Part shown: in pieces, positions 31,251 through 47,353 of the stretch
How positions within the stretch are numbered: the first letter of the stretch is position 1
How the letters are laid out: each line of letters starts with the position of its first letter
Virus record (IMG/VR): IMGVR_UViG_3300043579_000184
Location: 35,315-99,314 of that record
Reading direction: 5' to 3' (one strand)
Length of the DNA: 64,000 nt
Origin: a virus
Translations under genes and position numbers: made by a program
The notes under the pieces: model-generated
Databases searched by the model: none
The model's input: the letters and a program-made list of their open reading frames with translations, nothing else
Told to the model about the DNA's origin: nothing

Positions 31251-32204
31251 ATGCCGGTCCTAGTCTCCAACTCGAACGGCGAAGACAGTTCCCCCGCGCA
31301 CCTGCGGGAGTTCAACCACTGTCACAACCCGACCGGCCCGGGGGGCGGGGAGTTCTGCTCGGCCCCGGATGCCGGGAGCGGCGGGGGCAGGGCGGGCAAG
31401 GGGTCGGCGGTCGCGCTGATGCAGCAGGCGCTGATCGGGGTGAAGGAGAACCCCCCGCGCCACCGGGTGCACCTGCCGTACGCCCTCGACCCGGGCATGA
31501 ACGCCCGCATGCAGGCGCACAGCGACGACCCGAAGGTGCAGTTCGCGTACATGCAGAAAAACTACCCGCGCGTGGTGCGGGCGGCCGAGGCGCTGGTCGC
31601 GAGTGTGGCCCCAGCGCACGCGGAGCTGCAACGGGGGCTGACACAGGTGGCGCAGCGGCTCGGGTTTCAGATGCACCACAACCCCGAGGACGAGGCGGCG
31701 CTCGCCGACGACAACGACTACGTGTTTATCGGACCGCTCAAGTCCGTGTCGCGCGTGACGACCAAGTCCGCGAAGAAGGGCGGCGATGTCGGGGAGGTGC
31801 GGGACATTCTGCGCGGCACGGTGGCCATGCAGGATCTGAACGACTTCCCGGCGACGTTGCACCGCCTCTCCGAGATCGGGGAGATCCTGCACGTCGATGA
31901 CCGGATGAGCAAGCCCACCCCGGGGGGCTACCGGGACTATCAGGTCATCCTCAAGCTGAAGACCTCCGGGCAACTGGTCGAGATGCTGATCCTGCCCAAG
32001 CCGATGCTCGCCGCGAAAAAGCACGGGCACGCCCCCTACGAGGAGGAACGGGCCCTCCCCACCGGGCACCCGCGTAAGGCCCAACTGAACCAGTTCATGC
32101 ACGACCTGTATAACGGAGCATGGATGCGATCACGTGGTACGCGGCAGGCCCTCGCCGTGCTGGGGTCGCTGGCGCTGGCGCTGGCTCCGGTGGTCCACAA
32201 ATGA
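31251..32204 (+). CDS. leader-family protein 1 with RelA/SpoT-like nucleotidyltransferase domain
   Basis: Leader HLREFNHCHNPTGPGGGEFC; KSVSRVTTK, VRDILRG, GGYRDYQV, VEM motifs. Confidence 0.7.
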   Translation: MPVLVSNSNGEDSSPAHLREFNHCHNPTGPGGGEFCSAPDAGSGGGRAGKGSAVALMQQALIGVKENPPRHRVHLPYALDPGMNARMQAHSDDPKVQFAYMQKNYPRVVRAAEALVASVAPAHAELQRGLTQVAQRLGFQMHHNPEDEAALADDNDYVFIGPLKSVSRVTTKSAKKGGDVGEVRDILRGTVAMQDLNDFPATLHRLSEIGEILHVDDRMSKPTPGGYRDYQVILKLKTSGQLVEMLILPKPMLAAKKHGHAPYEEERALPTGHPRKAQLNQFMHDLYNGAWMRSRGTRQALAVLGSLALALAPVVHK

Positions 32205-32425
32205 CGACGCGCTTTTTCTCGGATGAAGGGGACATCCTCCGGGCGCGGGCCGCAGGCCGGGACGCCCCGCTCGACAAGTACTACGTCACGCACGGGTGGG
32301 TACCGCACGGGCTGAGGGTGGGAGACATCGAGTTCCCCTCGGTGCTCGACGCGGAGACGGCGGCCCGGAAGATCCGGGCCATGGGGGTCTCGGCGACGGC
32401 GGCCGCCAAGGCGGTGCAGGGATGA
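32201..32425 (+). CDS. small protein translationally coupled to leader protein 1
   Basis: ATGA overlaps at both ends. Confidence 0.55.
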   Translation: MTTRFFSDEGDILRARAAGRDAPLDKYYVTHGWVPHGLRVGDIEFPSVLDAETAARKIRAMGVSATAAAKAVQG

Positions 32426-44519: not shown

Positions 44520-46544
44520 GTGATCACCAACCCGAACGTCGAAGTGACCGCGCGGCGCGCGGCGATAGAGGCCATGCTCGATGACCCGGACTTCCTTGAC
44601 AAGCGGGGGAAGATCCGCGTCAAGCGTCTGACCAAGTATGACGACCCCAACCGCTTTGACCAGCAGTTCGAGTCGGTGGTCAAGGAGGTCGAGACCAACA
44701 TCGTCAACATCGACGCGAAGCTGATGGAGGGGGGCCGCCTTGTGCATTACAAGAACGCCCAAGCGTTCCTCCGCAGCAAGACGGTGGTCCGGCGGCTGGC
44801 CGTGGCCCGCGAGCACGGCTACCTGCAGACCGGGGAGATCGAGCTGGCCCGCCGCAAGGGCCTGCAGCACACCATGGCGGCGCGGCTCCGGGAGGGCGGT
44901 ACCGACTTCGAGTACGGCATGTATCCGGACGAGGTGCGCGGGACCAGCCCCGGCAAGTACTACCCGATCACCGACGTGGCGCTGCCCAGCCTGAACAGCC
45001 CGGCGTCGAAGAACGCGACGTTTGTTGACTACCTCGATGCCCATCGAAAGAGCTGGGAAGCCGCCACCTTCAACCCCATCGCCAAGCGGATCGTGAAGAT
45101 CGTCCCGCAGTTCGTGCTCGGGCGCGGGGTCAAGGGCGCGACCAACTCTGCCCCGCACCAGAAGCTCTGGGACCACTTCTTCAAGCGCAACCGGATGCGC
45201 TCGCGCACCAAGCAGTCCCTCAAGGAGCTGCTCATCTACGGGGAAATCTTCTGGCGGTTCTTCGCTTCCAAGGACGGACTGATCGTCCGCTCGGTGGACC
45301 CCTCGACCATCTGGGACATCGTCACCGACGAGGACGACATCGAGTCGGTCAAGTACTACCACCAGCAGTACACCCGGTTCGACCTCAGCCCCCTGCCGGG
45401 CCGGATGCCGATCCCATCCACGCTGGTCATCCGCCAGATCCCGGCCGACCAGATCGATCACTACAAGATCAACTGCACCAGCTCCGAGAAGCGCGGCCGC
45501 AGCGAGCTGTTCCCCATCCTCGGGTATCTGCTCCGCTTCAAGGAGTTCGTCAACGACCGGATCCTGCTCAACAAGCTGCGCGCCACGTTTGCCCTCGACG
45601 TGGCGGTCGAGGGGGGCCAGACCGAGGTGAACGCGGCCGAGGCGCAGTTTGCCGAGCCGCCGGGCCCGGCCGCCGTGTTGGTGCATAACAAAGCCATCGA
45701 GGTCGAGTTCAAGAACGCCGACGCGCACGCCAATGACGCGGCCACCGACGCCGACACGATCCTGAAGGTCATCGCCATTGGCGCAGGGATCAGCGAGAAC
45801 TTCCTCGGGGTCAGCCGCCAGCAGACGCGCGCCGGGGCGCTCATCAGCACTGAGCCGGATGTCAAAAACTTCGAGGACCATCAGGAGCTGATCGAAGAGA
45901 TTCTGGTCGATGCGTCCGACCGGGTGTTCGCGCACGCGGGGCTGGCCCCGCTGCAGATGGAGTTCACCTTCCCGGCGATTGCACAGGAGGACCGCAGCGC
46001 CAAGCTGCGGGACATCGCCTTCACCGAGGCGATGGACTACATCACCAAGGAGCGCGCGGCGGTCATGGCGGCGCGCGAGTTCCAGATCACCGACTACAAC
46101 TACGCGGCCGAGAAGCAGCGGATCAAGGTCGAGCGCGGCGAAGAGCCGGTCATGGCGCAGGGGATGCAGCAGATGCCCAAGATCGCGGTCGATCCCAACG
46201 CCGTGCCGGAGCCGCCGGGGCTGGGGGCCGACATGGCCCCGGGCGCGGCCCCGGCCGAGGGCGAAGAGGACGAGAAGAAGGGCGTCACCCAGACCTCCGG
46301 GCAGATGGGCTTCCGGGGCGACGGCGGCGGCCGCGCACTGGCCGACACGAAGGCCACGCTCAACCGGCCGGGCTTCACGCGCGGCGGCGAGAAGAAGGCC
46401 ATCAAGAACAACCACAGCTCAGGCACCCCGCTCCGCCATGCGGCGGGCGAGGAGCCCATCCGGCGCGGCTGGAACGACACCGCGCGGGCCAAGTCGCTGG
46501 CCATCCGGCGAGCGCGGGCGGAGCTGCGGAAGCGGGAGCGGTAG
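44520..46544 (+). CDS. portal protein
   Basis: 674 aa gene right after TerL-C; NPIAKRIV..FVLGRG, IYGEIF, EKRGRSELFPIL, long acidic/basic tail. Confidence 0.75.
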   Translation: MITNPNVEVTARRAAIEAMLDDPDFLDKRGKIRVKRLTKYDDPNRFDQQFESVVKEVETNIVNIDAKLMEGGRLVHYKNAQAFLRSKTVVRRLAVAREHGYLQTGEIELARRKGLQHTMAARLREGGTDFEYGMYPDEVRGTSPGKYYPITDVALPSLNSPASKNATFVDYLDAHRKSWEAATFNPIAKRIVKIVPQFVLGRGVKGATNSAPHQKLWDHFFKRNRMRSRTKQSLKELLIYGEIFWRFFASKDGLIVRSVDPSTIWDIVTDEDDIESVKYYHQQYTRFDLSPLPGRMPIPSTLVIRQIPADQIDHYKINCTSSEKRGRSELFPILGYLLRFKEFVNDRILLNKLRATFALDVAVEGGQTEVNAAEAQFAEPPGPAAVLVHNKAIEVEFKNADAHANDAATDADTILKVIAIGAGISENFLGVSRQQTRAGALISTEPDVKNFEDHQELIEEILVDASDRVFAHAGLAPLQMEFTFPAIAQEDRSAKLRDIAFTEAMDYITKERAAVMAAREFQITDYNYAAEKQRIKVERGEEPVMAQGMQQMPKIAVDPNAVPEPPGLGADMAPGAAPAEGEEDEKKGVTQTSGQMGFRGDGGGRALADTKATLNRPGFTRGGEKKAIKNNHSSGTPLRHAAGEEPIRRGWNDTARAKSLAIRRARAELRKRER

Positions 46545-47353
46545 TGCCTGCCTTCCTTGTGCCGCTGCACGAGTACAACAAGTGCCACAACCCTGAAGGC
46601 AAAGGGGGCGGCCAGTTCTGCTCGGACGACGCTGATCTTGCCGAGCCCGGCCCGGACGACTACCAGCAGGGCTACCCGCCCGCGCAGGCGGCCGCCATGG
46701 CGTCGGCCCGTAGCGCCCTGATGCGGGCCTCGTTCGAGAGCGACGAGGTCCGGGAGACCATGTCGGTGGTCAACGGCAAGGGCGTTTACGTCGGCGAGAT
46801 GCTCACCGGCGACGGGACCAGCATCAACATTCCGGACGCGCTCTGGAAGGTCTGGATTGACAAGGGCCCGGTGGTCACCGCTCACACGCATCCGGGGTCG
46901 AGCACCTTCAGCTTTGACGACTTCCGCCTGCACAATAAGGTGAACGCGGCCGCGCAGGGCGGGGTCTTGTTCAACCCGCTGGCGGTGGACGCCATGCAAG
47001 TCTTCGGGGAGGACGGCTCGTGGTACGAGATCAAATTCACGCGGGTGCTGCCCCACCCGGAGCTGACCTCGATGGAGAAGAGCTTCGACCGCAAGCGCGA
47101 GCTGGTCGCCCGGTTGGCCGAGACCAAGACGACCGCATGGGCCAAGGCGCAGCCGTGGTGGACCGACCGGCCGGAGAAGACGTGGGATCTGATGACGGAG
47201 CTGGAGCACATTCGCCATGCCGCCAAAAAAGCCGGAGTCCTCGACGCCCTCCAAGCCCACCACTCGCGCCTCTTCCGCGACCACGCGAAAGACATCTGGA
47301 AAGGGCTCGCCGCGCAGTACGGGTTCGAGTACCGCTACCACCTCGCGGATTGA
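46544..47353 (+). CDS. leader-family protein 10 with JAB/MPN-like metallo-domain
   Basis: GTG-PAFLVPLHEYNKCHNPEGKGGGQFC; E...HTHPGSSTFSFDD. Confidence 0.7.
   Translation: MPAFLVPLHEYNKCHNPEGKGGGQFCSDDADLAEPGPDDYQQGYPPAQAAAMASARSALMRASFESDEVRETMSVVNGKGVYVGEMLTGDGTSINIPDALWKVWIDKGPVVTAHTHPGSSTFSFDDFRLHNKVNAAAQGGVLFNPLAVDAMQVFGEDGSWYEIKFTRVLPHPELTSMEKSFDRKRELVARLAETKTTAWAKAQPWWTDRPEKTWDLMTELEHIRHAAKKAGVLDALQAHHSRLFRDHAKDIWKGLAAQYGFEYRYHLAD

Follow-up and report, generated by a model that had tools for sequence, protein, structure and literature searches.

Tagged genes in the window

The stretch of DNA analysed here (the window) comprises 64,000 nucleotides and corresponds to bases 35315–99314 of the 129,940-bp virus record IMGVR_UViG_3300043579_000184. 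The record has a G+C content of 67% and a CheckV completeness of 100%. No tRNA or Rfam family was found within the window. Ten genes in a head-morphogenesis block of this phage encode proteins that share one N-terminal peptide motif, here called the tag. A preliminary description of the DNA had pointed out these ten genes, and a six-frame scan combined with alignments gave exactly ten copies in the window, all on the plus strand. The tagged genes are listed below (aa, amino acids).

31251..32204, plus strand: c01, variant leader MPVLVSNSNGED...LREFNHCH...GGEFC; weakly RelA/SpoT-like body
32422..33414, plus strand: c02, variant leader MIRLVPNSNGED...LDEYNHCH; body with a ParB/Srx-type DGHHRW motif
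33448..33822, plus strand: c03, 124 aa; body without an assigned family
34293..34892, plus strand: c04 (start at 34293/34296); body with a Cys/His/Asp papain-like motif
34892..35821, plus strand: c05, zeta-toxin-like kinase (PF06414)
35987..36694, plus strand: c06, weak S-AdoMet lyase match (PF23780, E = 0.0014, below cut-off)
37155..38072, plus strand: c07, type IB topoisomerase (PF01028; PF21338, E = 2e-7)
40701..41465, plus strand: c08, tag from residue 17 (LREYNDCH...GGQFC); basic low-complexity body
42390..43229, plus strand: c09, GNAT-like body
46544..47353, plus strand: c10, JAB/MPN metallopeptidase; GTG start overlapping the portal stop codon

The ten proteins are single-module proteins of 124–330 aa, and a Gly-rich linker follows every tag. 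The bodies behind the linker are unrelated to each other, as first described, and Pfam detected no MuF domain in them. The zeta-like kinase matched PF06414 with an E-value of 1.1e-21 and 77.7 bits (cut-off 22.3), and the topoisomerase IB matched PF01028 with an E-value of 3.6e-19 and 69.5 bits (cut-off 23.7), which bears out the earlier readings of c05 and c07. The JAB/MPN reading of c10 was likewise upheld by its E...HxH...SxxD motif, by the AlphaFold2 (AF2) model with a predicted local distance difference test score (pLDDT) of 82.5, and by Foldseek, whose top hits were all JAB/MPN proteins (BubCD, an Rpn11 homologue, RadC and JAMM1; E = 4e-3 to 0.1, probability 0.97–1.0). Residues E71, H114, H116, S123 and D126 of c10 are invariant in five homologues, and the H-to-S spacing is one residue less than in the textbook JAMM motif. 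For c09, the GNAT reading has its basis in structure matches in the Atlas and in the homology of the body to the C-terminal domain of a MuF protein. The c09 body forms the C-terminal domain of MuF in two other phages, G003 (gene G003:C1:19037-20356) and L028.

Other bodies were assigned at a lower level. The RelA/SpoT-like character of c01 is weak (PF04607, E = 0.0037, below cut-off), the ParB-like assignment of c02 has the short DGHHRW motif as its sole basis, and the papain-like assignment of c04 stands at the level of the Cys/His/Asp motif only. A homologue of c02 comes after the polyvalent protein P0002 in L022. The weak match of c06 raises the possibility of an anti-restriction enzyme that degrades S-adenosylmethionine, and its homologues in L017, L019, L020 and L039 are likewise tagged. 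A PDB sequence search with the cargo bodies gave no usable match.

The alignment of the tags showed the invariant residues L8, E10, N12, C14, H15, P17, G19, G22, G23, F25 and C26. Seven window genes begin with M-P-x-F-L-[VR]-P-L-[HY]-E, as had been claimed. Five more copies were found past the window end, at genome positions 99441, 100048, 101031, 103524 and 103913 (window-equivalent 64127 to 68599), giving a total of 15 tagged genes in the virus record. Across the whole genome, 12 of the 15 begin with M-P-x-F-L-[VIR]-P-[LI]-[HY]-E, and all 15 have a hydrophobic residue-x-E two residues ahead of the invariant Asn. A profile of the tag detected each copy in its own genome with E-values of 1e-14 to 6e-23, far beyond chance. 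Most tagged genes are translationally coupled to the preceding gene via TGATG, TAATG or TAGTG overlaps. The motif had been thought to be undescribed, and the searches agreed: no family of Pfam, NCBIfam or PHROGs covers the tag of these proteins, and literature text searches for motif strings returned no relevant paper.

Conservation and structure of the tag

The tag profile was searched against 1.84 billion cluster representatives and matched 380 protein clusters at E ≤0.001, of which 81 matched at E ≤1e-10. The residue frequencies, the counts of N-terminal and internal instances and the Pfam tallies given here and below rest on the best 150 of the 380 clusters. The unit is about 30 residues long and consists of a short hydrophobic strand, a core and a Gly-rich linker. 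The universal core is x-N-x-C-H-x-P-x-G-x(2-3)-G-G-Q-F-C, in which Asn(-2) (98–100%) and His(+1) (90–99%) are the most invariant positions. The flank ahead of the core is lineage-specific. High-GC phages have M-P-x-F-L-V-P-L-H-E or M-x-I-V-P-N-S-[YW]-G-S...L-x-E, whereas low-GC phages have M-[YF]-x-x-I-L-K, giving I-L-K-x-N instead of L-x-E.

The two Cys residues of the core vary together. Both were present in 75 instances, neither in 9, the first only in 7 and the second only in 0, and all 7 first-Cys-only instances have a replacement Cys 4–8 residues downstream. Cys-less siblings of the tag sit in the same arrays, with the pattern [IL]-L-K-x-N-P-[YN]-H-[DE]-P-x-x-G-[RK]-F or N-P-N-H-E-P-A-G-S-P-K-G-G-Q-F-A. 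Judged by these patterns, the window motif is a Cys-stapled, loop-expanded form of a broader N-x-x-H-x-P...G-x-F tag. The preliminary description suggested that the Cys-His...Cys part may bind metal. This idea is weakened, and an essential Cys-His-Cys zinc site was rejected, because the siblings lose both Cys together and retain the His. The covariation and the Cys-less siblings suggest a stapled hairpin whose ends touch rather than a metal site. A thioester (Cys-Gln) was also rejected, as several copies have Glu or Arg in place of the Gln. JAB cleavage after Gly-Gly does not hold as a general rule, since short-loop variants have a single Gly.

In the full-length AF2 model of c10, tag residues 1–32 had a pLDDT <50 and the JAB domain was confident. 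The isolated 32-aa tag, modelled by AF2 from a 141-row alignment, reached a pLDDT of 72 with no assignable secondary structure and was uninformative. The PDB matches to the tag profile were kringle domains only, with a per-domain i-Evalue of 0.67, which is not significant, and one eukaryotic kringle protein was among the library matches of the profile. The core N-H-C-H-N-P-D-G-A-G-G-G-Q-F-C (window 42423-42470) resembles the kringle sequence N-Y-C-R-N-P-D-G-x-x-G-G-P-W-C.

These features raise the question of whether the unit is a structural or regulatory knob that works after delivery, as a disulfide- or metal-stapled hairpin. Such a knob would dock the enzymes on a common target (DNA, membrane or host protein) or keep them latent in the producer until a redox or metal change. 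The strict Cys covariation fits this explanation, as does the resemblance of the core to the kringle inner hairpin, and latency would be useful because many cargos (zeta kinase, ADP-ribosyltransferases) would be toxic to the producer. However, the Cys-less variants in the same arrays indicate that neither a metal site nor a disulfide is essential, the kringle match lacks significance per domain, and AF2 shows no docked conformation of the tag on the cargo. The knob would also leave unexplained the lineage-specific flank and the tight link to portal, MuF and protease genes described below. We consider this explanation improbable.

Variation and recombination at the tag

The twelve MPxFLVP-type leaders were compared pairwise by codon position. 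Differences reached 35% at third positions versus 14% and 11% at positions 1 and 2, in line with the earlier statement that the leaders vary mainly at silent sites. The predominance of third-position differences indicates that selection acts on the peptide. At the DNA level, leader pairs reach 88–90% identity and share exact runs of 20–24 nt.

The preliminary description further proposed the leaders as recombination points, and a crossover inside a leader was found in the relative L016. L016 is a 22-kb contig with 97–100% protein identity to this phage, and it is without the 35987 (c06) cassette. Comparison of L016:4807-4932 with window 35950-36075 and 37118-37243 showed that exactly one leader-to-leader unit of 1,168 bp has been lost. 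The 5′ flank and the opening leader codons of the L016 gene are those of 35987; still within the leader, the sequence changes to that of 37155, and a chimeric leader now stands ahead of the topoisomerase IB gene. Being shared among the cassettes, the leader is thus also a recombination point for swapping cargo.

The exact 20–24-nt runs and the cassette-deletion junction would also be expected if conservation acted here on the DNA itself, for example on a recombination or regulatory site, instead of on a peptide. However, the differences are concentrated at third codon positions, and the peptide is conserved across carrier genomes of 43% to 72% G+C with quite different DNA. Recombination is therefore a by-product and not the cause of the conservation, and a DNA-level function is rejected as extremely improbable.

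Head-gene block

The other genes of the block are listed below in order.

29279 (start): sigma-factor-like gene, first in the order of the head block
30325..31209, plus strand: large terminase, N-terminal ATPase half; phrog_17415 (weak)
43517..44515, plus strand: large terminase, C-terminal nuclease half, by alignment to the large terminase (TerL) of phage G005
44520..46544, plus strand: portal protein; phrog_10963, E = 8e-17
47390..48340, plus strand: MuF-like head protein, 316 aa; conserved C264, C267, H271, H284, C287 and C289
49185..50639, plus strand: prohead protease, acidic linker and scaffold-like C-terminus, fused; phrog_15531, E = 2e-11
50707-51198: small decoration protein, named from position, with no family match
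51252..52280, plus strand: major capsid protein, Mu gpT-like

The large terminase is split. The open reading frame (ORF) of the ATPase half aligned with residues 61–269 of the unsplit 628-aa G005 TerL (E = 5e-9), and that of the nuclease half aligned with residues 433–594 (E = 1.5e-17). The two ORFs are 12.3 kb apart, and the gap holds nine tagged genes. The preliminary description had placed all ten tagged genes between the terminase and the MuF/protease/capsid genes. This has to be modified, since nine sit between the two terminase halves and one between portal and MuF. G002 and the L017/L019 group share the split terminase, again with tagged genes between its halves. The nuclease half of L020 lies just downstream of tagged genes, and its ATPase half is off that contig. 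The terminase halves of the relatives share 45–62% protein identity with those of the window. A PDB sequence search with the terminase halves gave no usable match.

The MuF-like protein ends right after its CxxC...HPxCRC motif and a toxin domain is absent; the Pfam MuF model stays below threshold on it. Among the head proteins, only MuF has a conserved Cys/His cluster. The capsid and decoration proteins contain no Cys, and the portal contains one that is unconserved.

A relaxed tag pattern run over the whole genome matched the 15 tags, one antisense frame and one site in the protease/scaffold protein. This site is the tag-core-like stretch HLPGGAGKF after the acidic linker (window 50175, residue about 331). 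It was rejected as a meaningful tag-like site because neither the G002 nor the L049 orthologue conserves it.

Insertions were observed in the head genes of some relatives. The portal gene L020:6954-9884 contains an insertion of about 300 residues that starts with C-L-S-G-D-T, includes an HNH-like stretch and looks like an intein. The MuF gene L020:9884-11140 is interrupted by a similar C-V-L-G-D-T insertion right after its HPNC motif. In L019:9686-12466 and L039:6754-9534, a domain of about 190 residues that contains two H-V-T-V motifs is inserted in the portal C-terminus. It looks like a 2H phosphoesterase, which would be an effector fused to the portal.

Distribution of the tag in other phages

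The preliminary description had treated the tag as an N-terminal leader. This is correct for 139 of 210 instances, which lie near the N-terminus, but the other 71 are internal. The internal tags stand at each module boundary of giant polyvalent proteins, ahead of effector modules. In P0001 (2,992 aa), nine tags spaced by about 300 residues set off modules such as ART-PolyVal, topoisomerase IB and ADP-ribosyltransferase (ADPrib_exo_Tox). Five tags occur in P0002 (1,969 aa), and P0030 has a tag ahead of each of its Zeta and TopoIB modules. A c04-like body, an internal tag and a c07-like topoisomerase IB are joined in one chain in P0073 of another phage, which indicates that the modules shuffle. 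The c09 body is linked to the tag in this phage and to MuF in G003 and L028, so the tag and MuF fusion appear to be alternative attachments of one cargo.

The Pfam families found behind the tag (143 clusters) were ART-PolyVal (13), GNAT (11), Zeta (4), ADPrib_exo_Tox (4) and PI3/PI4-kinase-like (2), with single cases of MuF, XkdF-type (S78_2) protease, 2′-5′ RNA ligase and S-AdoMet lyase. The profile search that had been suggested thus returned the tag in 380 clusters, with diverse cargo.

The motif looks virus-only. A degenerate DNA pattern of the core had 31 matching stretches in IMG/VR and 0 matches in 185,579 prokaryote species (one genome each, 596 Gb), and a peptide-pattern scan of prokaryote genomes found none. 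The tblastn searches of GenBank phages and PLSDB plasmids with the tag, the Cys-less tag and the 2,992-aa polyprotein returned domain-level matches only and no tag. No cultured carrier turned up in the cultured-phage collections searched; the jumbo phage Tunturi_5, raised by an ART match, was rejected as a carrier because it has no tag. A homologue search limited to the tag region returned near-identical proteins only, its word index being unsuited to a 30-aa motif.

Tags adjoin portal, MuF, protease, capsid or terminase genes in about a dozen lineages. The gene order of G002 is the same as that of the window, and the relatives L017, L019, L039, L020 and L049 have portal, MuF, protease or capsid genes nearby. 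The five-tag protein of L022 begins at the stop codon of a portal-like gene, ahead of MuF. The order in G003 is a portal-like gene, six tagged genes, the MuF-GNAT fusion, an XkdF protease, a scaffold-like gene and a probable capsid gene; family matches were obtained for its MuF and protease only, and the portal-like gene is named by position. The tag of G001 is 1.2 kb from MuF, and that of P0021 is 7 kb from a Peptidase_S77 and Gp23 pair. A MuF-type CxxC...HPxC gene adjoins the tags in L023/38/41, L024 and L028/42/45. The head-module context proposed for the tag was thus seen wherever enough flank was available, with no match in prokaryote genomes. The independence from MuF proposed with it did not stand, since a MuF gene adjoins the tags in most lineages and both occur in one chain in P0100 and L024.

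The strongest rival to the interpretation given below is a pure processing junction. The unit would then serve only as the place where modules are cut apart or activated, and packaging would be set by MuF, portal or co-assembly. The cutter would be the tagged HExxH zincin-like metallopeptidases of the same arrays, or the chain would cleave itself at the invariant Asn. Each module has its own copy of the unit, even in nine-module chains and in chains that hold MuF, and Asn(-2) and His(+1) are its most invariant positions. Known cleavage sites of Asn cyclisation are the bond after Asn in the NPTH of FlhB/YscU/EscU and the N42–P43 bond of reovirus mu1. All copies of the tag have an invariant N and H at the same spacing as NPTH, and the N-P-[YN]-H of the Cys-less siblings resembles it. 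Tagged HExxH proteins occur in nearly every well-sampled array, with three in this genome and others in G002, G003, L017, L021, L024 and L028. Zincin-like metallopeptidase domains were also predicted to process polyvalent proteins (Iyer et al. 2017, PMC5512222).

Several observations speak against a junction alone. Stand-alone genes keep the complete unit at the start codon, including the upstream strand, where there is nothing to separate. All 15 copies of this phage read N-[DHK]-C-H and not N-P-x-H, and NPTH autocleavage as it is known depends on a surrounding folded domain of about 130 residues, whereas the tag is modelled as disordered. The activity of the HExxH proteins, or their action on tags, is predicted only. 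On balance we judge the pure junction rather unlikely.

Second cluster of tagged genes

The five tagged genes past the window end form a second cluster at genome 99441-104410 (window-equivalent 64127-69096; locus L074:127-5096). Three of the five (c12, c13 and c15) contain the HExxH zincin motif. The genes downstream of the cluster have no Pfam or PHROG match and may encode tail proteins.

This arrangement suggests another explanation, in which the unit would direct loading into the tail or ejection channel instead of the head. N-terminal packing signals load effectors into the tube of extracellular contractile injection systems. The five tagged genes here lie directly ahead of genes for 470-aa, 175-aa and 2426-aa proteins, which by size and order could be sheath, tube and tape measure. 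However, in the absence of a family match for these genes the word tail is a guess, the constant neighbours across lineages are portal, MuF, protease and capsid genes, and the cargos include 300-aa folded enzymes and 3000-aa polyproteins. We find tail loading highly doubtful.

Proposed function of the tag

The interpretation that we favour, and to which we give about an even chance, is that the unit is a candidate load-and-cut handle. It would be recognised by the head assembly or maturation machinery and would mark effector modules carried in the virion. This phage encodes every module in its own late gene, with the handle at the start; other phages link these modules into giant polyvalent proteins in which each one has a handle in front. 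Stand-alone genes have the whole unit at their very beginning, and it must therefore be more than a separator. It also stands before every polyprotein module, including those of MuF-containing chains, and must therefore be more than an address. Taken together, these two points argue for a handle that is bound and then cut by the head core, as is the capsid-targeting sequence (CTS) of phage T4. The cargo repertoire matches that of phage polyvalent proteins, which also supports the handle.

We envisage the following course. The handle would be a flexible exposed hairpin whose two ends are held by the Cys pair. During prohead assembly, the head core, most likely the protease/scaffold, would bind it and so draw the cargo into the capsid. 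Through the same recognition, the protease would cut at the lineage-specific flank (L-x-E in this phage), which would trim the leader or separate the modules of a polyprotein. The enzymes, such as the zeta kinase, topoisomerase IB, GNAT, JAB peptidase, zincins and RelA/SpoT-like protein, would exit with the DNA and act on the next host. The overall interpretation of the preliminary description is retained as far as a portable peptide under protein-level selection, unrelated host-directed enzymes and the head block are concerned; several of its points have changed.

A T4-like L-x-E cleavage flank had been proposed, and it is present in some lineages but not in low-GC phages, which have I-L-K-x-N. 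The flank L-x-E-x-N occurs in this phage (G000) and in G002, both with a phrog_15531-type protease, and in P0021, near a Peptidase_S77 (T4 gp21-type) and Gp23 head module. The flank I-L-K-x-N occurs in G003, with an XkdF/S78_2 protease. The flank thus seems to track lineage and protease family, in support of cleavage by the head protease.

The protease domain (residues 1–230) was co-folded with the c09 tag (residues 1–45). The score was 0.45 versus 0.05 for the best control, the runs shared at least 75% of contacts, and the partner pLDDT was at least 51. Of 78 solved complexes, 51 reach the mark set for this method, as do 2 of 108 mismatched pairs. However, only 5 of the 78 solved complexes reach it with a score of 0.60 or less, whereas all 4 mismatches that passed did so in that range.

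The following points weigh against the handle. Packaging, cleavage and injection of the tagged proteins are steps that we infer. The relation between flank and protease extends over three lineages only. No S77 (gp21-type) protease was detected in this genome, PF03420 remaining without a match even at an E-value limit of 1, and the L-x-E rule of T4 is therefore not simply transferable. The co-fold falls in a score range where passes are more often wrong than right, and the model can be taken as weak support at most. A single tag would suffice for targeting, yet every module has one, and tags also occur in the MuF-containing chains P0100 and L024; both facts favour processing over pure targeting. 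The five tagged genes of the second cluster lie away from the head block. The flank pattern, a hydrophobic residue-x-E-x-N, is not enriched outside the tags, with 9 other matches genome-wide versus about 12 expected (about 12 for the whole set, about 9 without the share of the tags).

The same pattern occurs in two head proteins. The capsid protein contains L-H-E-T-N at residues 39–43 of its N-terminal region (window 51366-51380); two orthologues retain the E-x-N but differ in the residues around it. The scaffold part of the protease/scaffold contains L-L-E-Q-N. An enrichment in head proteins, first seen in capsid and scaffold only, was rejected, since the genome-wide count puts their presence within chance.

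A wider proposal is that the Cys-stapled unit and its Cys-less siblings (N-P-x-H-D-P-x-x-G-R-F) are forms of a single address label, ancient and portable, that phages of unrelated head types (Mu-like, T4-like and XkdF-protease) would use to load enzyme modules into the capsid and to release them by cleavage. We offer this tentatively, as a possibility that is clearly less probable than the handle itself.

Significance

Phages inject proteins along with their DNA. To our knowledge, how proteins are selected for the capsid is understood for a few model phages only, through the T4 CTS, the P1 Dar proteins, and MuF or portal fusions. The tagging of packaged proteins is a known principle (T4, P1, MuF fusions and polyvalent proteins), and the motif reported here is undescribed in the databases and literature searched.

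If the handle is real, it would provide a sequence rule for predicting the injected proteome from genomes, and it would allow enzymes that may serve in host takeover or anti-defence to be listed. Fifteen such candidates would come from this phage, among them the JAB peptidase, the topoisomerase IB, the zeta kinase and the three zincins. The tag may also become a tool to load chosen proteins into phage particles. Should the ancient address label prove true as well, the cargo that a phage particle carries and injects could be programmed by one general and transferable rule. The data at hand already show separate tagged genes and fused polyproteins as two forms of one arsenal, with cassettes exchanged at the tag.

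Comparison with known systems

The kringle domain has about 80 residues and six Cys that form three disulfides. The tag shares with it the local pattern N-x-C-[RH]-N-P-x-G-x-x-G-G-x-[FW]-C, but has two Cys and only about 17 core residues alike. We take the resemblance to be due to chance or to a convergent hairpin and not to homology.

Encapsulin cargo-loading peptides, which are usually C-terminal, bind the shell protein, and DarB of phage P1 has an N-terminal packaging region. The principle is the same as proposed here, namely that unrelated enzymes are brought into an HK97-fold shell by a short peptide at one end, attached through a flexible linker. These peptides have no sequence relation to the tag.

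Jamet et al. are said to have described, in 2017, MuF polymorphic toxins and head proteins of the SPP1 gp7 family with C-terminal toxin domains. Variable effector domains on a carrier inside the head are common to both systems, and the c09 body is itself a MuF C-terminal domain in G003 and L028. In contrast, the MuF of the window is without cargo, and the cargo proteins bear a short tag and not a MuF domain.

The T4 CTS is a short N-terminal peptide on IPI-III and Alt that is removed by the prohead protease gp21, which cuts after [LI]-x-E. Both the CTS and the tag are short N-terminal peptides common to unrelated proteins, with 10 residues ending in L-x-E in this phage, and both belong to late genes among head genes. 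Unlike the CTS, the conserved part of the tag runs 16 residues past the Glu and would stay on the cargo. The unit can also be internal, and other lineages have the I-L-K flank. No S77 protease is detectable in this genome, and the tag has no sequence similarity to the T4 CTS.

The closest comparison is with the polyvalent proteins, for which capsid packaging and injection were predicted and a zincin-like metallopeptidase domain was proposed as the common processing element (Iyer, Burroughs, Anand, de Souza and Aravind 2017, J Bacteriol, PMC5512222). A text search of PMC5512222 for a conserved unit ahead of the modules found none. The cargo types are the same, namely ART-PolyVal, zincin-like metallopeptidases, zeta kinase, GNAT, ParB-like proteins, and topoisomerase and other DNA enzymes, and so is the context of portal-terminase packaging machinery with MuF. 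The present phage differs in having 15 separate genes, whereas a polyvalent protein is defined by two to 15 effector domains in one polypeptide. Relatives of this phage, however, fuse the modules into chains of 1,000 to 3,000 residues, and the same-tag proteins P0001 (9 modules), P0002 (5), P0030 and P0073 fall within that definition.

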